Origin: a virus
Virus record (IMG/VR): IMGVR_UViG_3300025929_000012
Coordinates: 32,001-96,000 of that record
Length of the DNA stretch: 64,000 nt
Direction: 5' to 3' (one strand)
The position numbers and the translations under genes are program-made. Positions 15,321 to 45,978 of this stretch are shown in pieces. The notes under the pieces were generated by a model, which did no database searches, had not been told where the DNA came from, and was given only the letters and a program-made list of their open reading frames with translations. Within the stretch, counting starts at the first letter, position 1; every line of letters starts with the position of its first letter.

Positions 15321-15361
15321 CCGCCATCACCGCCGCCACTCAAGGTGAGATGATGTGCGCC

Positions 15362-20929: not shown

Positions 20930-21166
20930 ATGGGCGACACGCTGACGAGGCCGGCGGCGGCATGCCGTGACGTGATGGGCACGCTCGCGGTCCGCCTGTG
21001 CACGCTGCAGGAGGCGCGGATGGCTTCCGGGGCGGTGCTGCTGCTCCCCGCCGGGACCTGCCCCGATGCCGGGGACCGCTACTGCGGCTGGCCCGTGGTC
21101 AGGTGCTGCTGCATCCGGGAGCCGATGATCGGACTGCCGGGTCGCGATCGGGGGCGCGTGGCGTGA
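20930..21166 (+). CDS. Hypothetical protein
   Basis: TACGAT 7 nt before ATG (leaderless). Confidence 0.65.
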   Translation: MGDTLTRPAAACRDVMGTLAVRLCTLQEARMASGAVLLLPAGTCPDAGDRYCGWPVVRCCCIREPMIGLPGRDRGRVA

Positions 21167-25738: not shown

Positions 25739-25944
25739 CCGGCGACACGGCGGCGCAGACTGAATCGCGGTCCGTGCCCGCCTTCCTGGTGCGGAACGTG
25801 CAGGAGCTAGCCTTCAGGATCGCGCAGGACCCGTACGCATGGCAGGTGGCCAGCGACCTGCGCAAGCTCGGGCTTGAGGTAGCGCTCCAGGTCCAGCCGC
25901 TCAGAAGCCCCGGCTCCACAGGAAGCGGAGCTGTTTCGCCGTGA
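25735..25944 (+). CDS. Hypothetical protein
   Basis: ATGA overlap. Confidence 0.55.
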   Translation: MTGDTAAQTESRSVPAFLVRNVQELAFRIAQDPYAWQVASDLRKLGLEVALQVQPLRSPGSTGSGAVSP

Positions 25945-26399
25945 ACCGTGACGGCACGGGGTGATGCAGCCGGTAAAGCGCCTTCAGTTCCTCTTCGGAC
26001 AGGCGATGCTGACGCGGGGGGCGGTCGTAGACGGTGACGCCGTCACTAGTCACGCTCGGGTGGCCGGAGGCCCGCAGGTTGGCGTACAAGACCGGAGCCC
26101 TGGTTGCGACCCCGCCCTCTTCGGCAAGGTTCTCCATGCTCTCAGCAAGCGACGCCTCGCCGCCATCCTTAAGCAGCCGGTCAGCGTACGCCTGAAGGTA
26201 GCGGGGGTGGTTGTCTAGCAGCGGCTGGGAGAGGTACAGCGCCTGCCCGCCCCTGGGATGCCTTAGGTCCAGGCCCTCGGGTAAGTGCTGGTAGCGCGCG
26301 TACATCTAAAATCTGGTCGACAACTACACTGCCGACCAGATCGCCGCTACCAACGATTTCCTTCAGGGCATCGATGCGCTCGCCAAAGGTGGAAGCCAT
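25901..26399 (-). CDS. Head-tail joining/tail completion protein, split by a 7-nt and a 6-nt TTA-initiated insert
   Basis: First 30 codons (...GSVVVDQI) in one frame, YARYQH[LP]EGLDLRHPRGGQALYL in another. Confidence 0.75.
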
Positions 26400-26457
26400 G
26401 ACCCCCTATCACCTCCCCTCAGCGACTGAGGCGAGCCGCGCGGACGCGGCGCTGGCC

Positions 26458-26667
26458 GTGATCTTCAGCAACCCGTGCGCCTGCCCGGAACGCCACGCGG
26501 GCAGCCCGGACGGCGCTTGTGGGCTCCGGGCTGCGAATACGATCAGTCACGCCGGAGCGGACCTCGCGGTGTGCATCCCCTGCGTGCGGTGCCTGCTTGA
26601 CGTAGAATTCGCGGTACCCCCGGGGCGCGCAAGCGGGTCAGCGAGCAGGCGCCTGCGGACTGGCTAG
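26458..26667 (+). CDS. Possible small Cys-rich protein
   Basis: CxC..H..C..CxxCxxC; no clear RBS or -10. Confidence 0.35.
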   Translation: MIFSNPCACPERHAGSPDGACGLRAANTISHAGADLAVCIPCVRCLLDVEFAVPPGRASGSASRRLRTG

Positions 26668-26766
26668 GGACCGTGATACTGCGCGGGGCACGAGCCTGCT
26701 CGATCGGCAGGCCGGTGCGGCGCAAGTCACGGGAACGGCCCCGGGGGGATCACAGGACGGGTGCGC

Positions 26767-27120
26767 TCACGGCGGGAAGCCGAGCCGCCGCATCGTGTCG
26801 GCCGCCTCGGGCAGCTTCATGCTCAGACCGTTCGGGGTGCTGGACCATCCGGGGTAGGCAGCCGAGTAGTCCCGGTCCAGCTGCACCGCTTCCTTCTCCA
26901 GGGCATCCCCGTACTCGGCCTGCGTGATGACGCCCTTGCTGACCAGCAGCCCGGTCAGCGCGGTCACCTCGGCGCGGAGCAGGATGGTGACCTCACGGTG
27001 ATCACGGACGGCCTTCGACTCCCCGTCGCTGTCGGGGCGGGTGCCGAGCTGCCAGCCGGTGAAGAACTTCCGCCACTTGGCCAGCTTCTCCAGCGCCGCC
27101 ATCAGGCTCTCGTCACTCAT
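26767..27120 (-). CDS. Hypothetical protein
   Basis: 117 aa, normal codon usage; WRKFFTGWQLGTR. Confidence 0.75.
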   Translation of the reverse strand: MSDESLMAALEKLAKWRKFFTGWQLGTRPDSDGESKAVRDHREVTILLRAEVTALTGLLVSKGVITQAEYGDALEKEAVQLDRDYSAAYPGWSSTPNGLSMKLPEAADTMRRLGFPP

Positions 27121-27162
27121 GGTGAGTCACCGTATCGCCTGCGCTGAGGCGATGACGGCCAT

Positions 27163-27672
27163 TCACCGCCACCCGTCAGCGAGCCGTGAACCCGGTGCCC
27201 CGGCTGGCATGATGCCGCCCCGGCCGTCGGGTTCGGTGCCGCTGTCTTCCCAGGTGAAGATCCTCGGCAGCCGGTTGACGACCTTCCCTGGACGGTCAAC
27301 GGGGTCAGCGGGGCCGGTGGGCGCGACGTCGATCCTTCCCGCCGCCACGTCCTTGAGCGTCGAGATGGCGTCAAGATAACCCAGGTAGACCGGGTCCATT
27401 GGCGAAAGGTCTTTGCCTTTCCTGTACGTTAGCGTTCCGTAAAACGTGCCGATCTGGATGGTGCACGTTTTTACGAGGTCGGGGACCGTCACCGTGGGGT
27501 TGGCGGCATCCACGGCGTAACTCGTGCCGACGTAACTCGAAACCTTGGCGCTGGCCTGGGCGATCGCCGCCGAGAGCTGGTCATCGCCGAGCTGCGCGCA
27601 AGTCCCGGTTCCGGCGTCGGTACCTGCGACGTTGGCCCGGATGTCGCTTGGCAGACAATACATGGCGGCCAT
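27163..27672 (-). CDS. Head-tail adaptor (Mu gp36/DUF1320-like)
   Basis: MYCLPSDIR...AIAQASAKVSSYVG...Y.DAISTLKDVAAGRI. Confidence 0.8.
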   Translation of the reverse strand: MAAMYCLPSDIRANVAGTDAGTGTCAQLGDDQLSAAIAQASAKVSSYVGTSYAVDAANPTVTVPDLVKTCTIQIGTFYGTLTYRKGKDLSPMDPVYLGYLDAISTLKDVAAGRIDVAPTGPADPVDRPGKVVNRLPRIFTWEDSGTEPDGRGGIMPAGAPGSRLADGWR

Positions 27673-27851
27673 CAGGGCACCGGCCTCTCGCTCGCCTCAC
27701 GGCCGTCGAGGCTGTGGTGTACCAGCAGCCATCCGTCTGAGCCGTCAGCGAGCGCCACGAGCCGCGCCTGGGGCACGCAGGCGCATTCCTCGCTGACCTC
27801 ATGCTCAATCAGGTCGCCCAGGGGGATGACGTGGGCCTCGTTGCCGCTCAT
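27672..27851 (-). CDS. Small Zn-binding phage protein
   Basis: HVIPLGDLIEH...CAC.P...GWLLVHHSLDGRE; TGATG overlap. Confidence 0.7.
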   Translation of the reverse strand: MSGNEAHVIPLGDLIEHEVSEECACVPQARLVALADGSDGWLLVHHSLDGREASERPVP

Positions 27852-27856
27852 GACCG

Positions 27857-28024
27857 TCAGGCCGGGTCGTCTGGTGCGCCGGCACAGCAGCAGCAGTCCC
27901 GGTCAGTGCAGCGGTCGCAGCGGCCACGCTTGCACGGGGGGCACACCCAGTCGCCGTCCAGGTCCGCGTCCGCCGGCTCCCCTGGGGCCGTCTCAGCGGC
28001 GGGAAGGCTGCCCTGCGCGGTCAC
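27857..28024 (-). CDS. Small Cys-rich protein
   Basis: CPPCKRGRCDRCTDRDCCCC; GTGA overlap. Confidence 0.55.
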   Translation of the reverse strand: MTAQGSLPAAETAPGEPADADLDGDWVCPPCKRGRCDRCTDRDCCCCAGAPDDPA

Positions 28025-28257
28025 GGCACGAGGTCCCCGTCGTCATCGCCGTCGTCCCCGGCCGGCTGCCGCGCTCCCAGGTCACGGAGGGCTGACATGA
28101 GCTCGGCGATGCCCTCCGCCACGCACCCCGGCAGCCCCGCCGCCTCAGCCGGGGTCATCCCCGAGATCAGCGCACTGGCCGCGTGGGCACGGGCGATGAA
28201 CGACGCCACCGGCTCCACGTCGGCGACAGTGACCTTGACGACGGCGTAACGGGCCAC
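28021..28257 (-). CDS. Hypothetical protein
   Basis: Fits operon spacing. Confidence 0.55.
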   Translation of the reverse strand: MARYAVVKVTVADVEPVASFIARAHAASALISGMTPAEAAGLPGCVAEGIAELMSALRDLGARQPAGDDGDDDGDLVP

Positions 28258-28266
28258 GGCCAGCCC

Positions 28267-28731
28267 TTACCTGTCCTTCGCCGCGTCCGGGTCAACCGAG
28301 AAATCGGTCTTCGGGTCGGTGGCCTCCGGGGCGTTCCTCGGGTCCGCCGGGTCGGTGACCTCCACCCGGGACGCGCCGGGCGGGTCGGGGCGGGCGCCGA
28401 ACTGCTCAGCCTTAGGCCGCTCCCCGAACAGGTCTCGTGCCCGGATCGCCGCCGCCGGGTCGTTCTGGTCCTTCGCGGGGCGGATCACCGGGACACGGTG
28501 GCGGGTCAGGAACCCGCGGGCGGTGTCCTCGTCCAGGACGACTGTCTCGCCCTTGTGGACGATGTCGGCCATCTTCTCCCCGCTCTTGGGGTCCGTGATG
28601 GTCCTGCTGATCGACAGGTTCGTGAGGGCTTCCCACAGGCGCGTGGTGACCTTCGGCTTCGGGTCGGCCTCTGCGGTCGCCGGCCTGGCCTCGGGCGGCG
28701 CAGCGGGCTCTGCGGGCTTTGCTGGGGGCAT
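28267..28731 (-). CDS. Hypothetical head-associated protein
   Basis: GGAGG RBS; position after capsid. Confidence 0.75.
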   Translation of the reverse strand: MPPAKPAEPAAPPEARPATAEADPKPKVTTRLWEALTNLSISRTITDPKSGEKMADIVHKGETVVLDEDTARGFLTRHRVPVIRPAKDQNDPAAAIRARDLFGERPKAEQFGARPDPPGASRVEVTDPADPRNAPEATDPKTDFSVDPDAAKDR

Positions 28732-28782
28732 GGGTGACGTACCTCCATGGCGGTAGGGGAAATGCCCGCCACGGAGGGCGGG

Positions 28783-30087
28783 TCAGGTCAGGGTGGGGAC
28801 GGGCTGGCTAAGGACCGGCTCTGGCGGCAGGAACGGCTTCCATGTGCCCTTGCCGAGCATGAACGCCGTGCCGCACATCGAGTGCTTGCCGCCAACCCCG
28901 TGGTTGCACGCGGCGCACGCTGGCAAGATGTTCGCCCACGCGTCCGTCCCGCCCTTGCACAGCGGGAAGTAGTGCTCAACTTCCTCGGATGGGGCACCGC
29001 AGTAGAAGCACGGGTCCCCGGTCATCTCGATGCACCGGGCCAGCGACAGCAGCCGCTCCAGGTCGGTCAGGCCCTCTTCGGCGCGCATCCGCCGGCGCAT
29101 CCTCGCCGCTGAGCGCAGGCCGGGGTTCTCACGCGCCCAGCGGCGCGCGTTCTCCCGGTGCTCCTCCACGTAGACCGCGCGGTACAGCCGGGCGTATTCG
29201 AGGCGCGCCGCCTGCGTGTCCCGGTAGTACTCGCGGTTGTACTCCTTGCGTGACGGCGACAGGTACCTGTGCTCGCGGCAGAAGCCGATCGCGTTGTCGG
29301 CGTTGATCGTCTTCCCGCATCCGCCCTTGGCGCACTTGCGGGCGTCCGGTGCCCAGTACTCGCCCCGGTGCTCGATGCAGCGGCCGAGGGTATTGGTCGT
29401 CGTCATGCGGTTATCGCAGCCGCCGACCGTGCACTCCGGCAGTTCCAGCGGGATATAGCGGTGCTCCGCAGTGCAGCGGCCGGTCATGTTGTCTGAGCGC
29501 AGCCGGTTGTAGCAGCCCTCCTGCGAGCACTCGGCGCGCTCATCGGGGCGCAGCCTTGTCAGCTCCCGCTGCCTTGCGTTCTCCCGGTCCTTGTACACCC
29601 GCATCAAGGGAGACTCCGCGAAGTGCTCCGGGCAGTAGCCGCACGTGTTGTCCACCCGGAGTTGCCGGTCGCAGCCCCGGGCGCTGGCGCAGAACCGGGC
29701 CGGAGCGCGGGCGGTCGCGTACTTGTGCTCCTCGCAGTACCCGCTCTGGTTGTCGCGCCGGACGGCCTTCCCGCAGTGGGCGCATGCGCCCATGCCCTCG
29801 CCGATGTAGCGGTGCTCCTGGCAGCGGCCGATGCTGTTGTTCCTGCGGAGGGGAGCGCCGCACTCGGTGCAGCCGGGGCGCGCTAGCCGTGCTGCCGCAC
29901 GGTCGGCCTTGCGCTTGGCCAGCTTCCGCAGGTGGGCTTCATGGGCCACGATCGCGGCGCGCACTTCCTGGCAGTCCGGGCAGCGGACCTGCTTAGTGGA
30001 TGCGCGGGCGAATGAGACCTGGCAATCTGCGCACGTGCCCGGCTTGAAGACTCGCGGAGACCTGCGCGCGGGGGTTATATCATGCAT
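28783..30087 (-). CDS. HNH endonuclease with six tandem CxxC...CxxH repeats
   Basis: C-terminal CFYCG...EHYFPLCKGG...NILPACAACN; repeats listed in findings. Confidence 0.9.
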   Translation of the reverse strand: MHDITPARRSPRVFKPGTCADCQVSFARASTKQVRCPDCQEVRAAIVAHEAHLRKLAKRKADRAAARLARPGCTECGAPLRRNNSIGRCQEHRYIGEGMGACAHCGKAVRRDNQSGYCEEHKYATARAPARFCASARGCDRQLRVDNTCGYCPEHFAESPLMRVYKDRENARQRELTRLRPDERAECSQEGCYNRLRSDNMTGRCTAEHRYIPLELPECTVGGCDNRMTTTNTLGRCIEHRGEYWAPDARKCAKGGCGKTINADNAIGFCREHRYLSPSRKEYNREYYRDTQAARLEYARLYRAVYVEEHRENARRWARENPGLRSAARMRRRMRAEEGLTDLERLLSLARCIEMTGDPCFYCGAPSEEVEHYFPLCKGGTDAWANILPACAACNHGVGGKHSMCGTAFMLGKGTWKPFLPPEPVLSQPVPTLT

Positions 30088-30213
30088 GCGTGTTGCACCG
30101 CCGTAATCGGTGTGGCCACGTCCCGGTGCCTGTTAGCGCAGGTGCCGGGACCTTTACGTACACGAGTCTATCAGACTTTCTAAGCCCGATAACCGGCCCA
30201 TGCACGTGTTCGA

Positions 30214-31128
30214 TTATACCCCGCTGAGCAGCACAATTGCGCTTGGCTGATCTAGACCTACGGCTGACGCCCTTTGCACGTCGCTCCTCGAAGCCTTGCG
30301 GCTCTCATCCCGATAGAGCGGAGAAGCCTGGTACGGCAATTCGTCGGCAATGAAGCCGCACCTATTGCGCTGCATGATAATGGCATTCCCGGCCGGTATT
30401 TGCCTCGATACCATAACATCGAGGTTAAATATCCGATTGGGAAGCACCCCCGTATACTGTAGCGATTCCGATGCGATATCGCCAATATAGGGCGCGGCGA
30501 ATGAGGATGACTGAAGAAGGGTATTCTTCGTTCCGTGATTGATTATCATGGTGTCTGCCTCGAATCCGAGGAAAGACGAAAGGCCGGTGATCGGGCTTGC
30601 TATTGAGGCGTTTTCGATCAAATACACGCCATTGGCGATGTCCGCGCGGATGGTGGCGTTGCTTGACGCCCACGCGTTGGACACCGCCAGGGTCTGGATG
30701 CCCGCGTTAGCTACTACAGCGCTGTAGAAGGCCGCGTTCCACGAGTACACCATCGTGTTCTTGACCTGCGTCAACTGCCGCGTGACCGGGTCGACGGACT
30801 GCCGGCGCCGCATCTCGTCGGAGACCATGATGGCCATCGCCCGCTCATGCGAGAACACGACCCGGGGAATGCCGACGGACGTCGGGACGACAGGGACCTC
30901 GGCGAACTCAGCGCGGATTTCCGGCACGTCATCCGCATATAGCGGAGTGCTCTCGGAATAGCGGACGGCACCGGACTCGGCGAGGCCACCGGAGCGCAAG
31001 ACGGCGTCTACGATGAACTCGTTCTTCGTCATGTCGAGGATCAGCGCGGGGATCGTCAGGGGGTCCTTGAGGAGGGCATCAACGGTAATCCGCGGGCCGT
31101 CCATGCTGGTGTACGCGGGCGTGGGCAT
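30214..31128 (-). CDS. Major capsid protein
   Basis: 304 aa after scaffold and cement genes; ITVDALLKDP...AEFAEVP...SDEMRRR; GAAGGA RBS. Confidence 0.9.
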   Translation of the reverse strand: MPTPAYTSMDGPRITVDALLKDPLTIPALILDMTKNEFIVDAVLRSGGLAESGAVRYSESTPLYADDVPEIRAEFAEVPVVPTSVGIPRVVFSHERAMAIMVSDEMRRRQSVDPVTRQLTQVKNTMVYSWNAAFYSAVVANAGIQTLAVSNAWASSNATIRADIANGVYLIENASIASPITGLSSFLGFEADTMIINHGTKNTLLQSSSFAAPYIGDIASESLQYTGVLPNRIFNLDVMVSRQIPAGNAIIMQRNRCGFIADELPYQASPLYRDESRKASRSDVQRASAVGLDQPSAIVLLSGV

Positions 31129-31238
31129 GTCTGTGTCCTTCCGGGGTCGCTCAGTGCACCCGGCGCGGCAGGGCTGCCCAGGGCATGTCGTTCACGGGTG
31201 ATGGCCCCGGGGGAGTCAGCAGGGCGGGAAGGGGGCGG

Positions 31239-31697
31239 TTAACCGAAGATGCGGGCGCGGCCGACGGCGTTGGTGGCGACGACGACGCCGCCGGGCTGGG
31301 TGCAGCGCCCGACGATGGTCGCGGGGAGGGTGTCGGTGCCGGACACCCACGGGGTCACCTGGCCGTTCGCGGCGGCCTTCAGGAGGGTGCCGAACGCGCA
31401 GTTCGCGGCGAAGACGACGTGCATGTCCTCCCCGTGGTGGACGGAGACGTAGTCGCTGACCACGCTCACGTCCAGCAGCGGTGCCCCGCCGGCGAGGGTG
31501 TCGGTCGCGCCGGCCTGGGTGGGGATCGGGGCGGCGTCGTTCCCGGCGACGCCGAGCACGAGGATCGAGCCTGCGCCCGCGGTGGAGACCGTCGTGGCTG
31601 CAGCGCCGTCAGCGGCGACGAGGGTTCCGCCTGCGACGGCCGCGCTGACCTGGTAGGAATCGGGGCCGGACTTAAAATGCGGTAGCGAGCCGGGCAC
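31239..31697 (-). CDS. Capsid decoration/cement protein
   Basis: VLGVAGNDA...GTLLKAAANGQV...IVGRC. Confidence 0.8.
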   Translation of the reverse strand: MPGSLPHFKSGPDSYQVSAAVAGGTLVAADGAAATTVSTAGAGSILVLGVAGNDAAPIPTQAGATDTLAGGAPLLDVSVVSDYVSVHHGEDMHVVFAANCAFGTLLKAAANGQVTPWVSGTDTLPATIVGRCTQPGGVVVATNAVGRARIFG

Positions 31698-31727
31698 TGT
31701 GAGTCACCATCCTGTTCGTGGGGCATG

Positions 31728-31750
31728 AAAAAACCCGCACGCGGCGGGTG
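31728..31750 (-). terminator. Intrinsic terminator-like hairpin
   Basis: ACCCGC-CGCGT-GCGGGT followed by a T tract. Confidence 0.7.
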
Positions 31751-31774
31751 AGTGAACTGCGGGGGCGAGGCGGG

Positions 31775-33058
31775 CTAGATGCCAGTGCGGCGGCGGAACT
31801 CCGAGACGAGCGCGGCACGGTCCTGCGCGGCCTTCTCCTCCGCCTGGCGCTCCGCGTCCGCGCTGAAGTCCAGGGGGGTGCCGAGCTCGCCGGACAGGTC
31901 CAGCATCCTGACTGTCTGCCCGACCTCCTTCAGTACCTTCCGCACGATCGCCCCGGCGTCGATGGAGGAGCCGTTGGACAGTTCCACGACGTGGCCCTCA
32001 CCTTCGAGGACGGGCCGGGCGAGGTCGGTGATCCTGGGGGGGATGCCGTACTCGCGGGAGTACCAGTCGCGTTCCTTCTCGAACGCGGCACGGTTGAGCG
32101 CCTGGGTGACGCGGGCCAGTTCCAGGGACGTTTCCTCGGCGCGGCTGTTGGCGAGGTCAATCTGCGCCTGCGCCTCAGCGGACAGGGAAGCCCCGGCGGT
32201 GACAGGCTCCCGGTCGCCTTCCTTGTCGCCCCCGGCCCCGCCGTCACCGCTTGTGCCGTCGCCTTCCCCCTCGCCGTCTTCGGGGAGGGAGTCGATGAGC
32301 TCCTGCAGCTGCTCATCAGTCAGCTGGTCATCAGCGCCTTCCCCTGCGGCGGTTTCCCCCCCGGCGGCGAGGACGGCGTTGAACTGGTCGTCGGGGAGGT
32401 CCAGCAGCCGGGCTAGCCGGGCCTCCTGCGCGTCTGTGAGTGCCATGCGGTGTTCCTCCTGCGTGGGAGTGCCGGGTTCGGCTGGCGGCTGTGATGCGGG
32501 CGGGGGCGGCGGCTCAGGGGCCTGCCCTGGCGGGGCGTACTGCTCGGCGGTCAGGTCGAGTACCTCGCCGTCGCCGTCGTTGGCGGCCTCGATCGCCTGC
32601 CACGGGCGCATGCCGGTGATGCGGGGGTCGAGGGTGCCGAGGACGTGCTGGATCGCGGCGGGGAAGAACGCGCCGTCAGCGCGGTGGTAGTCCTCCACGA
32701 TGCGGGCTGAGACGCCGAGCGCCGGGTTCTTCCGCAGCACCTCATCGCCGTCCTCGGTGGCGGCGAGGATCAGGTCGAGGCCGTCGTCGGTGGCCTCGAA
32801 GCCGCGGACCTCGCCGCGGAACCGCTCCGGGTCGTTGGTGTGGGAGTTGTCGCCGGGAGCGAGCTGGAACGGCACCTGGTCGAATGCCCGCGCATTGAAG
32901 GCTTTGGCAAGGCCGGCGAGGTACTCGGGCGTGAACGCGATCTTGCGGCCCTTGTACGAGATCTCGCCGACGGGGAGAATCTGCTTCCGCCACAGGCGGG
33001 ACGCGCCGGACGGGCGGGCCTTCCCCCGGTCTACCGGGGTGAGCATGGTCGTGGTCAC
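31775..33058 (-). CDS. Prohead protease/scaffold (Mu I-like)
   Basis: WRKQILPVG...H..DPE..RG...GVSARI...HVLGTLDPRITGM; acidic coiled-coil C-terminus; GGAGG RBS before GTG 33058. Confidence 0.85.
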   Translation of the reverse strand: MTTTMLTPVDRGKARPSGASRLWRKQILPVGEISYKGRKIAFTPEYLAGLAKAFNARAFDQVPFQLAPGDNSHTNDPERFRGEVRGFEATDDGLDLILAATEDGDEVLRKNPALGVSARIVEDYHRADGAFFPAAIQHVLGTLDPRITGMRPWQAIEAANDGDGEVLDLTAEQYAPPGQAPEPPPPPASQPPAEPGTPTQEEHRMALTDAQEARLARLLDLPDDQFNAVLAAGGETAAGEGADDQLTDEQLQELIDSLPEDGEGEGDGTSGDGGAGGDKEGDREPVTAGASLSAEAQAQIDLANSRAEETSLELARVTQALNRAAFEKERDWYSREYGIPPRITDLARPVLEGEGHVVELSNGSSIDAGAIVRKVLKEVGQTVRMLDLSGELGTPLDFSADAERQAEEKAAQDRAALVSEFRRRTGI

Positions 33059-33159
33059 TGGCCGCCTCCGCTTCTTTTCCGGGTTGCCGTGCTGAGCGGC
33101 CGGGACCGCGCGCAGCCAACCCCCCAGCAACTGCGCGCGGACCGGGCGGCTCAGCCTGC

Positions 33160-33188
33160 TTGCCATCCGTGTCTTTACCGGGTAAAGT
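33160..33188 (+). promoter_or_regulatory. Promoter with operator 2 (CTTTACCGGGTAAAG, 33173-33187)
   Basis: TTGCCA-17bp-TAAAGT; ATG 8 nt downstream. Confidence 0.85.
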
Positions 33189-33196
33189 CTGGCGTC

Positions 33197-33472
33197 ATGA
33201 CTGACATGACCGCCGAGGCCCGTGACGAGTTCGACCCGGTCGGCCTCACCGAGATAGCCACGATGACCGACCCGCCGATGACGCGCCAGCACGCGCTTTG
33301 GGTGATGGGCCAGGAAGGGGCACCGGAGCCGAGGCTGCTGGCGCGGATGAAGGTGTGGCGGCGGTCGGAGGTCGAGCCGTACCTGAAGGAGCATGCCGCC
33401 CGGGTTGCCGCCGGGTGGCGTCCCGTTCCCCGCGACCCCGCGTCGGGGCGGTTCAAGGGGAAGGAGTCGTAA
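33197..33472 (+). CDS. AlpA-like HTH DNA-binding protein (candidate repressor of the operator)
   Basis: VGLTEIA...TRQ...PEP...KVWRRSEVE. Confidence 0.75.
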   Translation: MTDMTAEARDEFDPVGLTEIATMTDPPMTRQHALWVMGQEGAPEPRLLARMKVWRRSEVEPYLKEHAARVAAGWRPVPRDPASGRFKGKES

Positions 33473-33482
33473 GGCCGTCCGC

Positions 33483-33516
33483 TTGCCGTCCTTCACTTTA
33501 CCTGGTAAAGTGAAGG
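33483..33516 (+). promoter_or_regulatory. Promoter with extended operator 3 (27-bp palindrome, 33490-33516)
   Basis: TTGCCG-17bp-TAAAGT; CCTTCACTTTACC-T-GGTAAAGTGAAGG. Confidence 0.85.
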
Positions 33517-33558
33517 TGTAGCGAGGGGAGATGCCCCGCGCGGAGGGGGCAGGAAATC

Positions 33559-33852
33559 ATGAGTTACCGCGATGAGGACCCGTGGGCGGAGGTCGAGGCA
33601 GAAGAGGCCGAGCGGTTCGATGCTGACCTGCTCCAGGCTGAGATGGACGCGCAGGGCGACGCCATCGCTCGCGCCTGGAAGGCCGGCCGTTGCACCCACG
33701 GCTCTACGGCCGGGTACATGCGCCAGTCGCCCCGCCCGGAGCAGGCAGGGCTGAAGCCGGGGCAGTCGCGGTGCACCGCCGGGTGCGAGGCCGTGTTCGG
33801 CTCTGACCAGGACTGGTATGACGCGATGGACGCGGCACTGGAGGGCGTGTGA
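33559..33852 (+). CDS. Hypothetical acidic protein
   Basis: First gene after operator 3. Confidence 0.75.
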   Translation: MSYRDEDPWAEVEAEEAERFDADLLQAEMDAQGDAIARAWKAGRCTHGSTAGYMRQSPRPEQAGLKPGQSRCTAGCEAVFGSDQDWYDAMDAALEGV

Positions 33853-34880
33853 TGATCACCATCAGCCACAGCTACGCGGACGGGACCCTCATCGGAGGGT
33901 CCCGGAAAGGCGACGGCGTCTGGCAGATCCTGGTCGCGCTCCGCAGCGCCGGCCAGGGGAACTGGCGGTCATCCCGCGACGTGGGCCTGTACCTCGGCCA
34001 GTCACGCGACAAGGACGCCCAGACCTGGAAGATAGACAAGGCCGCTGAGGCGCTGCGGGCAGCCGGGTTCGAGGTCACCGTCGAGGTTGACGAGGGCGAG
34101 GCACGCCCGTTCGCCGAGCAGGAAGCCGACCGGAACGCGCGGGCGGAGGAACGCGCTGAGCGGTACGCCGGCTACGCGGACAGTGCCGCCGCGCGGTCCA
34201 CTGCCGCCTATGAGGGCGTCCGGCGGATCTCAGACGGCATCCCGTTCGGGCAGCCGATCCTGGTTGGCCATCACTCCGAGCGCCGCGCCCGCCGTGACAT
34301 CGCCCGGATGGACAGCGGGATGCGCAGGAGCATCGACGAGGGCAAGAAGGCCGATTACCACGCCGGCCGGGCAGCCGCCGCCGAAAGCTACCAGCAGCAC
34401 CGTGAGGATGTCCCAAGGACCCTGCGGCGCATCGGGAAGCTTGAGGCTGAGGAGCGGGGCGTGCAGCGCCGCCTCGCCGGCACTGGGCTGGCCATGCACG
34501 GTGAGGACAAGCCCGCCACCGGACGCTACCGGGAGCAGTTGGAGCGCCGCGCCGAGAACTTGGCCCGGGAGCTTGCCTACTGGCGGGAGCACGTCGCCGC
34601 CCGCGAGGACGAGGGCGTCAAGGTGTGGTCCCGCGCGGACTTCGCCAAGGGTGATTACGTCCGCTACTCAGGCCGCTGGTATCAGGTGGAGCGGGTCAAC
34701 CCGAAGTCACTGTCGGTGCCGCACGGCAACAATGACCACCTGCTGGCCGTGGTGACCCGGGACAAGGTGACGCATGCGCTGGGGCCGTCACAGTGGACTA
34801 GCAAGGTCACCTATGACGAGGTGCGGGGGCGGAAGACGGCCGCCGAGATGGCCGCCGCGCTCGGTGCGGCGGCGGAGTAA
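33849..34880 (+). CDS. DUF3560-containing protein
   Basis: IPFGQPILVGHHSERRARRD signature. Confidence 0.9.
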   Translation: MMITISHSYADGTLIGGSRKGDGVWQILVALRSAGQGNWRSSRDVGLYLGQSRDKDAQTWKIDKAAEALRAAGFEVTVEVDEGEARPFAEQEADRNARAEERAERYAGYADSAAARSTAAYEGVRRISDGIPFGQPILVGHHSERRARRDIARMDSGMRRSIDEGKKADYHAGRAAAAESYQQHREDVPRTLRRIGKLEAEERGVQRRLAGTGLAMHGEDKPATGRYREQLERRAENLARELAYWREHVAAREDEGVKVWSRADFAKGDYVRYSGRWYQVERVNPKSLSVPHGNNDHLLAVVTRDKVTHALGPSQWTSKVTYDEVRGRKTAAEMAAALGAAAE

Positions 34881-34887
34881 GGGACAA

Positions 34888-34922
34888 GCCCGTCATTCCC
34901 CTTGCCGGGGGGTGGCGGGCTT
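34888..34922 (+). terminator. Hairpin terminator
   Basis: GCCCGTCATTCCCC...GGGGGGTGGCGGGC stem with G-U pairs. Confidence 0.6.
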
Positions 34923-34924
34923 AC

Positions 34925-34953
34925 TTGCCTTCCATGTCTTTACCAGGTAAAGT
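34925..34953 (+). promoter_or_regulatory. Promoter with operator 4 (CTTTACCAGGTAAAG, 34938-34952)
   Basis: TTGCCT-17bp-TAAAGT; nearly identical to 3572-3600. Confidence 0.85.
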
Positions 34954-34995
34954 AAAGGCGTGAGGGGGAAACGCCCCCGGGGGAAGGGAACCGAG

Positions 34996-35181
34996 ATGAC
35001 AGTCACCACCTGCACCGGATGCGATGAGGAATGCGGATCTGAGGACTCCTACAGCGACTGCTGCAACGAGCCCGTCACCGCCAGCGCCCCGTACGGCCTG
35101 TACGGCGACCCGGACGGCTACGACCGCAACGGCGCCTGGGACGGCTTCCAGGTCACCAGCGACGCGGAAGGAGGGCTGTGA
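34996..35181 (+). CDS. Small acidic Cys-rich protein
   Basis: CTGC...C...SDCC; GAAGGGA RBS. Confidence 0.7.
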   Translation: MTVTTCTGCDEECGSEDSYSDCCNEPVTASAPYGLYGDPDGYDRNGAWDGFQVTSDAEGGL

Positions 35182-35396
35182 TGACCTACCCGGTTATCTA
35201 CGCTCCAGGCGGAGACGTCATCGGGAAAGCCAGCACCGAACGCGGGGCCATCCAGTGCGCGGGCGGCATCGTCAAGGCCAGCTTCGAGCGGTGGACAGCA
35301 TCCTTGCGCGAGACCCTGGACCGTGGCGACATGGCAGACTTCACGCTGGCGTGGTTCGTTGGCCCGCAACTCAGGACCCGGACAGTGGGCCTGTGA
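35178..35396 (+). CDS. Hypothetical protein
   Basis: AGGAGG RBS; coupled. Confidence 0.65.
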   Translation: MMTYPVIYAPGGDVIGKASTERGAIQCAGGIVKASFERWTASLRETLDRGDMADFTLAWFVGPQLRTRTVGL

Positions 35397-35734
35397 TGGG
35401 CGGCACGTACATGGCCGAGCGGGCAGCGGGCGCGACCGCCGAGGAGGCGCTTGAGGCTCTCCGCGCGGCTTTCCGGGAGCGTGGCTACACCGACGTGGAC
35501 GACCCCAGCGGTGATTGGCCTGAGGATGGCCCGCAGTCGTGGCCTGACCCGTTCGCGAAGGGCTGCGTGCAGGTGTGGGGCAAGCCGGTCAAGGACCACG
35601 CAGCCGAGTGGATGCGCGGATGGGTAGCGCAGCACCCGCCGGCCGGGGTGGACCCTGACGACAAGTGGGGGCCGTGGATGACGTTCCCGCTGGAGTCCGG
35701 GGGATGGATGTTCTTCGGGTGGGTGAACACGTGA
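35396..35734 (+). CDS. Hypothetical protein (DDKWGP...GWMFFGW)
   Basis: TGATG overlap. Confidence 0.7.
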   Translation: MGGTYMAERAAGATAEEALEALRAAFRERGYTDVDDPSGDWPEDGPQSWPDPFAKGCVQVWGKPVKDHAAEWMRGWVAQHPPAGVDPDDKWGPWMTFPLESGGWMFFGWVNT

Positions 35735-35964
35735 AGCTCCAGCGGCAGCCGCTCGCGTTCGGGATGACCCGCTGGGGGCCGCTGCCCGGCACCACGGACC
35801 TGTTCCTGTCCTGGGGTCCCGGTGACGGGATCTACCTGCACAAGGGCGAAGACGGCCCGCAGAAGCGGATACGGCATGAGTCGGCGTCCGGCATCTACGA
35901 CACGGCCAAGGCGGCGCAGCGAGCAGTCGACGCGTTCATCGCGGCAGGGGATGAGGCACCGTGA
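35731..35964 (+). CDS. Hypothetical protein
   Basis: GTGA overlap. Confidence 0.65.
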   Translation: MKLQRQPLAFGMTRWGPLPGTTDLFLSWGPGDGIYLHKGEDGPQKRIRHESASGIYDTAKAAQRAVDAFIAAGDEAP

Positions 35965-36530
35965 CCACCACGGCCGACAGCGCGAGCGCCACCTACGCGC
36001 TCGCCAGGAAGGTCGCCGCCGGACTCGGCGGCGGCGCTGCGGCCCGTCCCGGTGAGTACGGGGCTGAGATCACCGACGGCGCGACCCGGCTGCACCTGAC
36101 GATCTCCTGGCATGACCCGAGTCGCCTGGAAGTGTCCGGGGTTTACCCGTCCACGAGGCAGGAGCGCCTCAGGCGGACCAGCATCAGCGTCCGCATCGAC
36201 CGGGGGCCGGCAGTCATCGCCCGCGAGATCCGCTCCCGGCTGCTGCCCGGCTACCACGCCGAGCTCGCCCGGGTTACCGAGCTCAACGCCGGGGAGGCGC
36301 ACGACGCCGGGATGCGGGAGGCGCTGGCCGGGAAGATAACCGGCATGTTCCCCGGCGCGTTCACCCGCGTCACCGGCTACACGGGCCACGGCACTGAGGT
36401 GGTCATCCCCGGCGGCGACGGGCCGGGTGGCACCGTGAGCCTGTCCGGCAGCGGGGCCTCGGTGGCGATGACGTTCCGCTGCGTACCCCCGGAGACGGCG
36501 GTCCGCATGCTGGCGGTCCTCGCCGGGTGA
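35961..36530 (+). CDS. Hypothetical protein (IAREIRSRLLPGY)
   Basis: GTGA overlap; 189 aa. Confidence 0.75.
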   Translation: MTTTADSASATYALARKVAAGLGGGAAARPGEYGAEITDGATRLHLTISWHDPSRLEVSGVYPSTRQERLRRTSISVRIDRGPAVIAREIRSRLLPGYHAELARVTELNAGEAHDAGMREALAGKITGMFPGAFTRVTGYTGHGTEVVIPGGDGPGGTVSLSGSGASVAMTFRCVPPETAVRMLAVLAG

Positions 36531-36550
36531 CCTGAGCGCCCCGGTGAGCG

Positions 36551-36584
36551 GGCCGTCCCCCTTGACCGGGGTGGCGGCCTTTTT
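36551..36584 (+). terminator. Intrinsic terminator
   Basis: GGCCGTCCCCC...GGGGTGGCGGCC followed by TTTTT. Confidence 0.75.
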
Positions 36585-36772
36585 CAGTCCTTCATGAGGG
36601 CGTGGTCGAACGGGACGTCGGCTACCTGCCCGGCGGGGATCGCGGCGACCTCCGCCTCGATCTGCGCGAACAGGGCCCGGTTACGGGTCGTCTGCGGGGC
36701 CCCGGATTCCTCGAACGGCTTCCCCGACGCGGCGGCCATCAGCATCAGGTGGGCTGCCTCGCCGCGCTCCAT
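36584..36772 (-). CDS. Small protein coupled to the zeta toxin gene (candidate antitoxin/immunity)
   Basis: AAGGAG RBS; TGATG overlap; 62 aa. Confidence 0.65.
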   Translation of the reverse strand: MERGEAAHLMLMAAASGKPFEESGAPQTTRNRALFAQIEAEVAAIPAGQVADVPFDHALMKD

Positions 36773-38127
36773 CACTGGTTCTCCTTCGCCAGGAACCGGG
36801 CGTACGCCGCGCGGTCCTTCACTGACCATGCGCCGCCGCGGGGCTTGGCGCCGATCAGGGTGGCGGGGGTGCCCTGGGGGCCGTTGTTGTCGTGGAGCGT
36901 CGCGGAGTCGAACAGGTCACGGGCGATCGCCTGCCGGAACGTGCCGGACACGGCGGCGTGGGTTTCCCGCAGGAACGTCTCCGGGACGGCCCGGCCGGTC
37001 TTCGCTGCGCGGGCCTGCGCCCGCTTCAGTGCCTCGCCCGTGTCGACGGTGACGTACTGGCCGTGGACGTGATAGCCGGCCTTCCGCGCCGCGGTGACCT
37101 TCCCGGCGAGCTTCTCATAGTGGGAGTCACCGGTGCCGTCGAGGGTGAAGTCACGTTTCCCGGCGACCGCCCGGTCCATGATCTTCTTCGCGACCCGCGA
37201 TGACTCCTCATGGACGTACGCGGCGGCGGCCTTGTCCCCGGCGGCCTTCATCGCGGCGTACTCCGGCAGCTGCGCCTTGACGTCGTCCGGGTTGATGACG
37301 ACGCCGCGCATCTTGCCCGTCGCCGACTTCCCCGACGCCGGGCCGCCGCCCATGAACGTCGCCGTCGGGTCCGCGGACCGGGCAGACCCGGCGAGCGCCC
37401 CGGCGATGATCTTCTCGTGGAGGGCCTGCCGTTCGGGGGTGAGCTGCCCGCCCCTGGTGTGCGCGTCGAGGCTGTCGGCGGCGGGGCCGGCCCCGTCGAG
37501 CTTGACCCAGCCGTGCTTGTACCGGTACGGCGCGTGAGCGAGGTTGATCACGTCGCGGTGCCTGCCGCTGAGGGCTGGCTTCCCCGTGAACGCCGGGTTG
37601 GCCATCACCCCGGCCTTGCGCCTCGCGATGCCCTGCGCGGCGGCGAAGGCGCCGGCCTCCTTGAGGAGGGCAGTAATCGGCAGGCCGGCGCGGACCACCG
37701 GCATCCCCGCCGGGACCTTCGCGCCGCCCTCGGAGTCGGCGAGGACCCTGCCCGCCCAGGTGTGGTGCCCGTCAAGGACCCGGTTGTCGGAGCTGATGAT
37801 GACCGGCTTGGTGTCGGTGCCGGCCTTGACGGAATCAGCGATGCCCCGTATCGCGGCCGTGTCCCCGGTCGCCTGCGTCGGGCGCAGCGACCTGGCGGGC
37901 ACCCTGGCGGAGGTGACCGTGATCCCCTTGGCCTGCAAGTGCGCGATGAACTTCGGCATGAGCGCTTTCGACGGCACGTACTGCCCGTTCACGGTGCCGG
38001 AAAGCTGGGGCATGTCGCCGCGGTCGATGCCGAGGTTCCCGTGGTAGGTGACCGTGCCCCCGGACGGGACCCCGATGAGCCGCCAGCCGTGCGTGTACCG
38101 CTGCGGGGCGCCGGCCAGGTCGATCAC
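36772..38127 (-). CDS. ParB-like nuclease plus zeta-toxin (P-loop kinase) fusion
   Basis: RGDMPQL...LRPTQ...VIISSDNRVLDGHHTW; GGGPASGKS, INPDDVK, VHEESS, LDGT, TGRAVP. Confidence 0.85.
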   Translation of the reverse strand: MIDLAGAPQRYTHGWRLIGVPSGGTVTYHGNLGIDRGDMPQLSGTVNGQYVPSKALMPKFIAHLQAKGITVTSARVPARSLRPTQATGDTAAIRGIADSVKAGTDTKPVIISSDNRVLDGHHTWAGRVLADSEGGAKVPAGMPVVRAGLPITALLKEAGAFAAAQGIARRKAGVMANPAFTGKPALSGRHRDVINLAHAPYRYKHGWVKLDGAGPAADSLDAHTRGGQLTPERQALHEKIIAGALAGSARSADPTATFMGGGPASGKSATGKMRGVVINPDDVKAQLPEYAAMKAAGDKAAAAYVHEESSRVAKKIMDRAVAGKRDFTLDGTGDSHYEKLAGKVTAARKAGYHVHGQYVTVDTGEALKRAQARAAKTGRAVPETFLRETHAAVSGTFRQAIARDLFDSATLHDNNGPQGTPATLIGAKPRGGAWSVKDRAAYARFLAKENQ

Positions 38128-38168
38128 CTGGAGCAGTTCACCCCACCGGGCCGGGCTGAGGCCGCCGC

Positions 38169-39005
38169 CTACGCCGCCGCTGAGGCTTTTGGGCCTGCCG
38201 CCTTCCCGTGCATCGCCGCTGCCCGCTTCGCCATCGCCATCGCCACGGCTGGCTTCATCCCCTTGGCGAGCAGTTTCCGGTAGATGGCCGCCACGTCAGG
38301 TGACAGCCCCCCGGCTGGCTTGGCTGTCGCCGCTGGCTTCCCGGTGCCCATCGTGGTGACCCGCGGGCCGTCCACCGACGTGGCGGCCGACGTGAACGGC
38401 AGCGCCCCCGCGAGGTCCACTGCCCCGTCCTGCTCGCCTGCGTACGACGCCGTGCCATCCTGCTGAGCCGCCGGGAAGCCCCGCGCCCGCTTGTTGTGAT
38501 GGTCGATCAGCCCCGCCAGGGCGCCCTGCTGCGACCCGGACGCCCCGGTGGGAGTCCCGTCAGCGTGCTTCCCGGCGTAACCGCGCCCCTTCGCGGTGAT
38601 GACGCCGATCTTCATGCCGCTGCTCTTATGCTGAGCGGTGATCATCCCCGGAGCCGAACGGGACAACTGGACGTCAGCCGGGCCGCGGACCACCGGCATG
38701 CGTCTGGTCATGGTGGCCAAGCTGATCGCCTCCGTGTCGTTATTCGCGCCCTGGAAAGGCCATGTCCCCTTCACCCCGGGCGCGTTAGTGGCTTTGAGCT
38801 GCCTCGCCCGCTTGCGGATCAGCCGGGCCAGCGCCGGGCGCTTAGGCGCGGGCGCACGTCCCACAGACCGGATAGCGCGCTTGAGGTAGTCCAGGTTCGG
38901 GACCGGGAAAGCCGGCGGCTGGCCGTCAGCAGCGGGGAGCGCCTGTCCCTTCGCGGCGAGTTTCTTCCGGGACGCGGCGCGCTGAACTGGCGGGGTCTTG
39001 ACCAT
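38169..39005 (-). CDS. Basic putative internal head protein
   Basis: FPVPNLDYLKRAIRSVGRA...LIRKRARQL, as in prohead-associated proteins; GAGAGGA RBS. Confidence 0.75.
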   Translation of the reverse strand: MVKTPPVQRAASRKKLAAKGQALPAADGQPPAFPVPNLDYLKRAIRSVGRAPAPKRPALARLIRKRARQLKATNAPGVKGTWPFQGANNDTEAISLATMTRRMPVVRGPADVQLSRSAPGMITAQHKSSGMKIGVITAKGRGYAGKHADGTPTGASGSQQGALAGLIDHHNKRARGFPAAQQDGTASYAGEQDGAVDLAGALPFTSAATSVDGPRVTTMGTGKPAATAKPAGGLSPDVAAIYRKLLAKGMKPAVAMAMAKRAAAMHGKAAGPKASAAA

Positions 39006-39039
39006 GCAGCTTCCTCTCGCGAGCGCTACGCTGGCCCGA

Positions 39040-39148
39040 TGAAAGGGCGGGACGTACTAGTCCCCGCCGCCCGGAGAGCTAAAGCCGGTCAGTGTGATCC
39101 CGGGCAGGAGCGCGAGGGCCGGGCCAGGCGCGCTCTCCCGCCCTTTCA
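39040..39148 (-). promoter_or_regulatory. Mutually exclusive terminator/antiterminator RNA structure
   Basis: Perfect 13-bp inverted repeat 39040-52/39136-48 competing with a local hairpin at 39046-68. Confidence 0.55.
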
Positions 39149-40648
39149 CTTCGCCGTAACCAGCAGGTCATTCGCCTGCCACTCAAAACCGGGAGGGCAC
39201 AGGATCGTCGCCCGCACCCGGGTGCGCTGCGCAGGCCCCATGCTGTTGATCACCTCAGCAGTCCGTTCCGGGGTGTCATGGCGGGTGAACTGCGGCGGGC
39301 GGGGAGTGAACTGGCCGCCTTCCCGCACCCCCGGGGGGACGCGCTCAGCGGGGGCGATGAGGCGGCGGACCTCTGGGGCGGGCACCGTGAGGGCGTCAGC
39401 GATGGCGAGGTCGAGGAACCGGCCGCCGTCCCCGCTGAGCCTGATGGCGTTCGCTTGCCTGTCCAGTGCCCCGGCCTGCGCCCGCAGCGCCTTCGCCTTG
39501 CCTGTGAGGGCCGCCACCGTGGCCCGGTTCCGCGCCAGCGTCCGCCGCGGTGCCCCCGCGGAGGACTTGGTTGCCGCGTTCCCGGCCTTCCTCGGGGCCG
39601 CCTTCGCCAGCGCCGCCGTAGCCTTCGCCGCCGCCGTCGGGGCCACCTTCCTGGCCGCCTTGGCCGCTGCCGTGGCCTTCACCTGCGCCGCGATAACCTT
39701 CTGAATGCCGGCGATCTGCTGGTCGATGCCCGCTGCCTTCACCCGGTCGGCGTTCGCCTGGGCGTGGAGGGCATCCTTCCGCGCCCTGGGCGCCAGCGGG
39801 GCCGACGCTTTCGGCGTGCCCGGCTTCGGGGTACCCGGCTTGACGGCTGCCGTCTTCGGCGTGGTCGGCTTCGCCTTGGCGGGAGTTGTTCCCGTGCCTC
39901 CCGCCGGCTTAGCGGTGCCGACTGCCTTCGCCTTCGGCTTCGCGGCGGCCTTCTTCTTCACGGGCGCGTCCGGGAGCGGGTGCGCCGCGATCGCCGCAGC
40001 AGCCGCCGCCTCCGTCGCCGCCGCAGTCCCCGGCTTCGGCTTCCCCTTCGGCGCGTTCAGTGCCTTCAGCAGCCCCGCCAGCTCCTGCCGCTGCGCCGGG
40101 GTCGCCTTACCTGTCGCCACCAGGTGCTGCAGGTGGGCAATGTGGGCCATGTGCAGGGCATGCTGCTGCGCGGCTGTCTTGCCTGCCGTGCCGCCCGAGT
40201 TCGTGCCCTTCCCCGACGTGGTCCCGAACTGGCCGCCGGCCGGTGAACCTGCCGGGACATGAGGCGGCACGTAGCCGAGGTCGATGGACTGCCCGTTCCA
40301 GGTGAGCGCGATCACGGCACCGCCCTCGTTCGCATGGGCGTGGGCGACAGCGGACTTCGCGGCGAGGTCAGCCAGCGCCGCCTGAGCCGCCGCGACAACC
40401 TCAGGGTGGGCCTTCCCGCCGCCCCGCGCCCACCTGCGGATAGCGCCCCAGGTGATCGCGTACGCCACGGCGGGCGGGTGACCGGAGCGGATGAGAGCAT
40501 CCCTGACGTGCTGAAAGTACGGCAGTTATGGAGGCAGCTCCATCCCCTTCACGTGGTAAAGGCCGGGACCGCCCGGTTTCCCCGCCGGGGCTGGCGTCAC
40601 TGCCAGCCGCGCGGTATCCGCGGACATCTCGATTGGTGCTGCGCTCAC
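39146..40648 (-). CDS. Ala/Lys-rich putative internal head protein with in-frame TAA at codon 41
   Basis: GTG 40648 with GGGGGTGA RBS is in frame with ORF 39146-40468; TAA at 40526-40528. Confidence 0.7.
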
Positions 40649-40667
40649 TTGCCGATCACCCCCAGCC

Positions 40668-43744: not shown

Positions 43745-43747
43745 GGC

Positions 43748-45948: not shown

Positions 45949-45978
45949 GAGCGCCCCCCGTCGCTACGCTGGGGTTTC

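Follow-up and report, generated by a model that had tools for sequence, protein, structure and literature searches.

The window analyzed here, 64,000 nucleotides (nt) that span bases 32001–96000 of the 110,328-base-pair (bp) IMG/VR virus record IMGVR_UViG_3300025929_000012 (coordinates below are those of the window unless stated otherwise), contains the minus-strand morphogenesis module of an uncultured, high-GC, soil-type phage. Two genes of this module, a homolog of gp18 of Streptomyces phage Microdon (gene 1) and a gp9-like gene for a head-region protein (gene 2), are interrupted by three inserts of 7, 6 and 9 nt (gaps 1, 2 and 3; Table 1). Comparison with homologs suggests that ribosomes probably hop over these inserts, that is, that the genes are decoded by translational bypassing triggered by a hungry codon or a stop codon, at gaps of the type described in the terminase gene of phage phiHau3. 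What we would regard as decisive for this interpretation is the recurrence of differently built gaps in relatives of the phage.

Three short gaps in two morphogenesis genes

An earlier note, made from the sequence of the window alone, had proposed three inserts in two morphogenesis genes, and all three were found, with each gap motif occurring exactly once, on the minus strand (26300–26312, 26276–26287, and 40517–40531). Gene 1, which lies between the Mu gp36-like gene on one side and the major tail protein gene on the other, starts at the ATG at 26399 and encodes 30 residues (MASTF...VVVDQI) up to TTAGATG, continues in the +1 frame with YARYQH, is interrupted again by TTACCC, and then runs with EGLDLRHP... 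to the stop at 25901. The corresponding open reading frames (ORFs) encode 72 amino acids (from the ATG at 26399) and 134 amino acids (from the ATG inside the 7-nt insert). With both gaps skipped, the product is 161 amino acids long, and the uninterrupted homologs at loci L008, L009, L049, L055, and L056 also have 161 amino acids. Microdon gp18, which reads ...VVVDQVYAKYQHERMDLKHP, aligns in two frames over insert 1 and leaves a 2-residue gap at the Leu-Pro of insert 2; both these residues are absent from all homologs, and the uninterrupted gp18-like loci (23 of 38) read DQ[IVL]YAxxQHE.

Gene 2 starts at the GTG at 40648 and consists of 40 codons, the gap, and 457 further codons, with the gap site reading CCA TAA CTG CCG TAC. 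Alignments with the N-terminus of Microdon gp9 and with four related genomes run through gap 3, leaving a 3-residue gap exactly at P*L. Relatives (G001–G004, L016, and L017) read GMELPP-Y or its equivalent without the 9 nt (here and below, the hyphen marks the junction), and close relatives of gene 2 read GMELPPYFQN and GMELPPYIQN. Every homolog that is uninterrupted at these junctions lacks the inserts. The layout suggested in the note, with a sense codon followed by a slow codon and then by a codon resembling the first, stands, the openers being TTA, TTA, and TAA; it needs the correction that insert 2 is in frame and that insert 3 is in frame with a TAA stop. The other core genes are intact, in line with the note: in a pairwise protein-to-DNA scan with four related genomes, the sole in-gene stop in the record was the TAA of gap 3, and the other apparent stops were located at gene starts.

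A series of differently built gaps in related phages

The expectation that relatives would carry different inserts, led by TTA or by a stop codon, at other sites was borne out many times over. We collected 32 distinct gaps of 4–15 nt, 3 from the window and 29 from relatives, a set drawn from the window's own relatives; they are distributed among the gp18-like gene (12), gene 2 (2), the portal gene (17), and an N6/N4 methylase gene (1). The first non-homologous codon in the upstream frame is TTA in 24 of the 32 gaps, a stop codon in 5, and AGA in 3.

Among the 38 gp18-like loci (13 viral and 25 metagenomic), 15 are interrupted, all within the eight codons of the motif DQ[IV]-Y-A-x-Y-Q-H-E, at four junctions. 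The gaps (in square brackets where flanking codons are given) occur after Ile/Val (TTAGATG in the window and the AGA-led gaps of 13 and 11 nt in L003/L046, GTA[AGACCCACCG GTC], and L004, GTA[AGACCCCG GTC], respectively); after Tyr (TAC[TTAGC] in L047 and L059); after Gln (TTACCCGG in L006, TTATCCGA in L007, TTACGCGG in L010, TTACCCGA in L051–54, and AGACGCGCGG in L048); and after His (TTACCC in the window and TTAC in L005, at the same junction as gap 2). In the tree of the C-terminal domains of the gp18-like proteins, the gap states are interspersed: the sisters L005 and L006 are gapped at different junctions, L007 is the sister of the uninterrupted L008, and the small clade that includes the window comprises five different gap states along with one uninterrupted member.

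Gene 2 is gapped in 4 of about 67 loci, namely in the window and in the distant relatives L135–137 (3 of 66 loci), which carry another insert, CCC CCG[TTAGGCG]TAC, at the same Pro-Pro/Tyr junction. The portal gene of G001 (L028:6110–6200; G001 ~46153) is broken by TTC[TTAGTCC]GAC, and 12 of 80 further portal loci are interrupted by 16 gaps of 4–15 nt within the first ~55 codons; examples are ACC[TTAG ACC], CAA[TTACC CAA], TTC[TTAGAACGCTAA TTC], ACT[TT ACC], GGT[TTAA GGC], TAT[TAG TGT], TAT[TAGT TAA], and TAT[TGAT TAA]. G001 has direct terminal repeats and is thus a complete phage genome that carries gapped genes. In G002, the N6/N4 DNA methylase gene (L037:3518–5060; G002 103518–105060) is split at GSGF-PKS by TTC[TTACCTG TTC]CCG, so that the gaps are not confined to virion genes. 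One further candidate, a TTAGATG at the terminase/portal junction of G003, turned out to be an ordinary gene start.

The codon preceding the gap (take-off codon) and the last codon of the gap tend to match. After collapsing related gaps, 49 of the 72 codon positions in 24 gaps are identical, compared with a mean of 19.5 in shuffled pairings, none of which reached 49 in 20,000 trials. The pairs include perfect (ACC/ACC, CAA/CAA, and TTC/TTC) and synonymous ones (CCA/CCG, ACT/ACC, and GGT/GGC); in the window, each pair (ATT/ATG, CAC/CCC, and CCA/CCG) matches at 2 of the 3 positions. Some openers recur in unrelated genes: TTAACGG opens gaps in the phiHau3 terminase gene (L071, g7/g8) and in two unrelated portal genes (L207 and L216), and TTACC and TTAG recur as well, which suggests that the gap content is constrained beyond the first codon.

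TTA avoidance and selection around the gaps

The claim that, in the morphogenesis genes, TTA is found only at the gaps held in approximately 6,640 codons (22 gene segments): the one in-frame TTA is that of gap 2, and the TTA of gap 1 comes immediately after the last codon of the upstream piece of gene 1. The remaining two frames of the same 22 segments contain 14 and 21 TTAs. The gp13-like segment has a TTA count of 0 in all three frames, the other codon counts for this segment being unreliable; a further TTA is found at codon 9 of the longest possible gp13-like ORF, upstream of the start of homology to relatives. Most of the other TTA 'codons' in crude gene calls fall outside regions of homology. 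According to ARAGORN, neither the record nor any of four relatives contains a gene for the transfer RNA (tRNA) that reads this codon, tRNA-Leu(UAA).

The coding sequence upstream of the gaps is under purifying selection. Upstream of gap 3, 19 of the 35 codons compared with G002 differ by synonymous changes only and 5 by non-synonymous ones; when compared with each of five relatives, the 30 codons that precede gap 1 show 7–15 synonymous-only and 4–6 non-synonymous differences (10 of the latter for L003, the most divergent relative). A similar synonymous excess was observed when gapped relatives were compared with each other. L006, for example, is one of the relatives in which the portion after the gap lacks an in-frame start codon close to the junction. 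As judged from these alignments, selection acts on both sides of the gaps, and the genes appear to be still in use.

The proposed hop and competing explanations

Under the bypassing model, which is the simplest account by a single mechanism, a ribosome translating gene 1 or gene 2 would encounter either UUA, with very slow decoding, or UAA, with none; across the series, the stall would occur with UUA, AGA, or a stop codon in the A site. With the A site empty, the peptidyl-tRNA would leave its codon (AUU, CAC, or CCA), the mRNA would slide by 6–9 nt, and the tRNA would re-pair with the last codon of the gap (AUG, CCC, or CCG), which is similar to the one it left. Translation would then resume at the next codon and yield proteins collinear with the uninterrupted homologs (...VVVDQI-YAR..., ...YQH-EGLD..., and ...GMELPP-YFQ...), with the predicted junction peptides VVVDQIYAR, YQHEGLDLR, and GMELPPYFQHVR. 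Ordinary decoding would instead result in a 72-amino-acid dead-end product at gap 1 and in termination after 40 codons at gap 3; at gap 2, which is in frame, it would simply add Leu-Pro. What the analysis shows directly are the gaps, their comparative context, the codon statistics, and the selection on either side; the hop, how efficient it is, and whether it depends on the supply of tRNA-Leu(UAA) are inferred.

Several observations weigh against this model. Of the three landing codons in the window, two are imperfect, with a mismatch in the middle position for CAC/CCC and in the third position for ATT/ATG, and middle-position mismatches are found in other gaps as well (CAG/CGG and TTC/TCC). 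Gap 2, being in frame, may be read by plain decoding, so it may be either skipped or translated as Leu-Pro, and the in-frame ATG inside gap 1 might give rise to a truncated product of 134 amino acids. Furthermore, the local RNA folds at four gaps are no better than those of shuffled sequences (z-scores from −1.4 to +0.9). A predicted hairpin directly precedes gap 1 (Table 1), and the 91-nt fold that contains it has a non-significant z-score; its pairing is lost in the DLT/VSQ variants, which are still gapped, and the hairpin follows from the conserved coding of DLV...VDQI.

Decoding without hops, through a combination of frameshifting by +1 or −1 where the hungry codon stands, readthrough of the TAA, and ordinary decoding of TTACCC, appears improbable. 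In its favor, frameshifting is known to be stimulated by hungry codons, gap 2 can be read without any recoding, and a +1 shift could in principle restore the frame after gaps of 4, 7, 10, or 13 nt. At gap 1, however, a +1 frameshift is excluded because the +1 frame immediately reads TAG, and many relatives have TTAG or TTAA. Such a shift would rescue neither gap 3 nor the in-frame gaps with internal stops (for example, TTA GAA CGC TAA in L212), nor would it account for the 5-, 8-, 11-, and 15-nt gaps in relatives. Any extra residues would land in invariant motifs (QHE, PP-Y, and GF-PK), and the matched flanking codons would be left unexplained by frameshifting.

We give very little credence to the possibility that the genes are simply broken, be it through decay of a defective phage, duplication scars, or assembly errors, or that the inserts are eliminated from the DNA or the RNA ahead of translation. 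Inserts that break the frame, together with a nonsense codon, do have the look of a pseudogene, and the record is a metagenomic contig without terminal repeats. Against this, a single design recurs in 32 gaps from many samples, selection is apparent on both sides of the gaps while all other core genes are intact, and the complete terminal-repeat genome G001 carries such gaps. The region is identical in a second assembly: the Logan assembly of the source run contains a 55-kilobase (kb) contig identical to the window over 25901–40700, which, coming from the same sample, excludes an assembler artefact but not a population variant. Contigs from three other runs (one of them RNA) stem from ~90%-identical relatives; coverage or bridging of the gap sites was not demonstrated for them, and they carry no information on the inserts or on expression. 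Among the contigs of the source run, there is no insert-free variant, which speaks against removal of the inserts, and we know of no excision or splicing system that acts on 4–15 nt. Gene callers split or truncate gapped genes, making essential phage genes look broken; probably, they are not.

Comparison with known bypassing systems

Experimentally supported translational bypassing is limited to very few cases, namely T4 gene 60 and its relatives, the byps of yeast mitochondria, and the terminase gene of one Streptomyces phage. The closest parallel is the last of these. UUA-initiated bypassing in the large terminase gene of phiHau3 (g6/g7/g8) and in that of two prophages, StrepC.1 and the one of S. 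catenulae, is the subject of Smith et al. (2013) and Antonov et al. (2023, PMC10732093). The latter give a junction peptide and reporter data for the phiHau3 terminase and found such gaps in only 3 of 100 terminase genes (PMC10732093). Read from JX182369, the phiHau3 gaps are GGC[TTACTCC GGT]AAG and TCT[TTAACGG TCC]ACG. As in the window, a short insert (7–10 nt) interrupts a conserved late gene of a high-GC actinophage, the rarest codon, TTA, comes first, the gap ends in a codon similar to the take-off codon, and a gene can contain more than one gap. At the sequence level, the window gaps share with the phiHau3-type gap the insertion into an otherwise collinear gene, the opener, the landing codon, and the rarity of UUA. 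Unlike in phiHau3, where the terminase gene is affected, the genes involved here are those for the connector-like gp18 homolog, the gp9-like head-region protein, the portal, and the methylase, in an unrelated phage lineage with genomes of ~100–110 kb. The series also differs in the range of gap lengths (4–15 nt), the existence of AGA- and stop-led versions, the dense hot spots with fast turnover, and the landing codons some of which match at positions 1 and 3 only.

With T4 gene 60, the gaps share the flanking take-off and landing codons, the opening by a stop or hungry codon, and a position some 40–55 codons into the gene. The T4 gap, however, spans 50 nt (6–9 nt in the window and 4–15 nt in the series) and comes with a take-off stem-loop, an internal Shine-Dalgarno sequence, and a nascent-peptide signal, none of which was shown for the gaps here. 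The window gaps are not members of the T4 gene 60 family, even though the logic is alike. Nor are they byps: those of Magnusiomyces mitochondria are 27–55 nt long, GC-rich, and mobile, whereas the window gaps are 6–9 nt long, have a rather AT-rich start, and reside in a phage.

In E. coli reporters, short hops over stop or hungry codons were observed by Weiss et al. (1987) and by Gallant and Lindsley, according to the account given in PMC10732093. Those hops likewise cover a few nucleotides, proceed from a codon to a similar codon, and require no elaborate signals, but they occur at a low level in artificial constructs, whereas the gaps described here have become fixed in essential genes of phages and are passed on in lineages that have diverged. 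In mycobacteriophage Bxb1, a frameshift or bypass is suspected near a rare UUA in the DNA primase genes 50/51, and a change at this site abolished viability (PMC12646305). This, too, is an actinophage gene in two frames with a rare UUA at the junction; it differs in that the two ORFs overlap, the mechanism is undefined, and no gap with matched codons is described. In the searchable literature, gaps of this kind are described only for terminase genes, with the suspected Bxb1 primase case in addition, and the same design now comes to light in connector-like, head, portal, and methylase genes of an unrelated uncultured phage group. The 32 gaps provide a natural mutational series that bears on the rules of hopping, its dependence on tRNA supply, and a possible link to homing endonucleases.

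Origin of the gaps

Why the gaps exist is a question separate from how they are decoded. They could be scars, or immunity marks, of a conflict with free-standing homing endonucleases, an explanation that we consider plausible even if its chances fall short of even. An insert in a conserved target site would stop cleavage, only inserts that can be hopped over would survive in essential genes, and any regulation by UUA would be a by-product, a view also taken of the T4 mobA/gene 60 cassette; such an origin is compatible with the bypass mechanism, the decoding being the same. There is a precedent in T4: Bonocora et al. in 2011 reportedly linked the gene 60 bypass to the mobA homing endonuclease. 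The gene 60 insert blocks cleavage by the adjacent MobA, and some phages keep the bypass after loss of the nuclease (Manning and Atkins, bioRxiv 10.1101/2022.08.31.505936). Similarly, in relatives of the window phage, an HNH gene can be located just upstream of the gapped gene and is sometimes decayed or lost with the gap kept.

The distribution of the gaps fits a scar origin in several respects. The gaps cluster in extreme hot spots (the gp18-like gene is hit at four junctions in a stretch of eight codons, gene 2 twice at the same junction with different inserts, and the portal N-terminus at five or more junctions), turnover is fast, with sister sequences carrying different gaps or none, and all the gaps lie 90–170 nt from the start of the gene, a position like that in T4 gene 60. 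G001 carries, immediately upstream of its gapped portal gene and 170 nt before the gap, an HNH_3 gene (45109–45984) that the window lacks at this position, and, immediately upstream of its gapped gp18-like gene, a NUMOD4+HNH_3 gene (59519–60082); G002 and G003 lack the NUMOD4+HNH_3 gene and have uninterrupted gp18-like genes. In G004, the same gene (L043; G004 20264–20839, minus strand) stands beside the gapped gp18-like gene and contains an in-frame TGA, so that the nuclease gene probably is decaying, with the gap left behind; the TGA itself, considered as another gap, proved to be a substitution rather than an insert. In L135–137, an HNH gene is located ~350 nt upstream of the gene 2 gap.

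Endonuclease genes adjoin gapped genes in G001, G004, L135–137, L215, and L217, but also some intact genes. No endonuclease gene adjoins either of the two gapped genes in the window, where the nearest candidate homing endonuclease, the HNH gene that follows the major capsid gene, is 2.4 kb away from gene 1; its product is conserved in G001 and G004 and is related to that of the HNH gene upstream of the gene 2 gap in L135–137. Among the portal loci, such neighbors (searched with a panel of six query proteins) were found for 2 of 12 gapped vs 3 of 68 intact genes, a non-significant difference (Fisher p = 0.16), and the gp18-like genes of L060, L063, and L065 are uninterrupted and have endonuclease neighbors. 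In these three loci, the endonuclease genes, HNH-AP2 in L063 (1015–1848, minus strand) and endonuclease VII-like in L065 (764–1387, plus strand) and L060 (1413–1907, plus strand), all have the gp17-like gene on one side and the gp18-like gene on the other; L063 and L065 have an unusually divergent hot-spot motif (RYAHRQHEEL and VYSHWIHEGI), and L060 has the ordinary one.

Alternatively, the gaps might be a selected sensor, such that the full-length connector and head proteins are made only when tRNA-Leu(UAA) is scarce or termination is slow, coupling virion assembly to the growth stage of the host. This was the proposal of the earlier note, and we find it rather doubtful. Gap 1 would indeed give the full-length product only if UUA is not promptly decoded, TTA is otherwise avoided, and there is no phage gene for tRNA-Leu(UAA); a similar idea for phiHau3 was put forward by Smith et al. 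(2013), as cited in PMC10732093. A conserved switch would not be expected to be patchy and quick to change among close relatives, which the gaps are (present in ~15 of 38 gp18-like, 4 of ~67 gene 2, and 12 of 80 portal loci); AGA- and stop-led gaps would work without UUA, and the methylase gene is gapped, too. To our knowledge, moreover, bldA-type control is limited to Streptomyces. Taken together, the patchiness, the turnover, and the HNH neighbors suggest that a selfish or scar origin fits at least as well as a conserved regulatory switch.

As a speculation, and one that we hold to be on the unlikely side, short bypassable gaps could be a general class of elements that are actively generated in high-GC phages by homing-endonuclease attack on the conserved 5′ regions of essential genes, with selection keeping a hungry or stop opener and a matching landing codon. 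If that were the case, T4 gene 60 and the UUA gaps of actinophages would mark opposite ends of a single phenomenon, and a gap might turn up in almost every phage gene.

Genome context and additional observations

The record has a G+C content of ~70% and is rated complete by CheckV; terminal repeats were not found. The gene order of its minus-strand morphogenesis module is that of Microdon, with 29–45% protein identity (Table 1). A megablast search of 23.5 kb of the window against phage records produced no nucleotide match, a tblastn search of phage records with gene 2 produced no match, and a scan of a genome collection with the gp18-like profile detected no prophage relatives. Searches of Pfam and PHROGs assigned neither gapped gene to a family; the uninterrupted gp18-like homologs weakly match PHROG 556 ('minor head protein'). 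A profile search of solved structures gave chance matches to designed repeat proteins alone, and the AlphaFold2 model of the gp18-like protein, built from a 12-sequence alignment, had a mean predicted local distance difference test (pLDDT) score of 50 and was not used for a fold search.

Table 1 Features of the window discussed in the text.
Feature	Coordinates	Strand	Description
Tape measure gene	11193–15326	−	
Major tail protein gene	20200–20784	−	
Gene 1 (gp18-like)	25901–26399	−	Homolog of Streptomyces phage Microdon gp18; head-tail joining region; two frames
Gap 2	26279–26284	−	TTACCC, 6 nt, in frame; take-off CAC, last gap codon CCC, resume GAG
Gap 1	26303–26309	−	TTAGATG, 7 nt; take-off ATT (26310–26312), last gap codon ATG, resume TAC (26300–26302)
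Predicted 14-bp hairpin	26310–26343	−	3′ arm ends at gap 1 take-off codon; context only
Small Cys-rich ORF	26374–26667	+	CxCPxxH...C...CxxCxxC
Mu gp36-like gene	27163–27672	−	
HNH endonuclease gene	28783–30087	−	434 amino acids; Pfam HNH and HNH_5; directly after major capsid gene
Major capsid protein gene	30214–31128	−	
Scaffold gene	31239–31697	−	
DUF3560 protein gene	33849–34880	+	
Kinase-like protein gene	36772–38127	−	451 amino acids; Zeta-toxin / AAA_33 kinase-like domain (Pfam E = 3e-26)
Gene 2 (gp9-like)	39146–40648	−	Head-region protein; conserved N-terminal domain matches N-terminus of Microdon gp9
Gap 3	40520–40528	−	TAACTGCCG, 9 nt, in frame, TAA opener; take-off CCA (40529–40531), last gap codon CCG (synonymous), resume TAC
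Protease gene	43079–43747	−	
Portal gene	44419–45963	−	Uninterrupted in the window
Terminase gene	46494–48194	−	

Several ORFs run antisense among the late genes, and those flanking the gapped genes have no match in PHROGs. One of the antisense ORFs, located midway within the structural operon, encodes a DUF3560 protein. The small Cys-rich ORF, which is divergent from and directly upstream of the gp18-like gene, is kept in L006, L009, L010, and L059, next to gapped and uninterrupted genes alike, and no family was found for it. The sole tRNA gene in the 110-kb record is that for tRNA-Ser(GCU), at 20984–21076 of the record and thus outside the window. The protein with the Zeta-toxin / AAA_33 kinase-like domain is encoded just downstream of the gp9-like gene.

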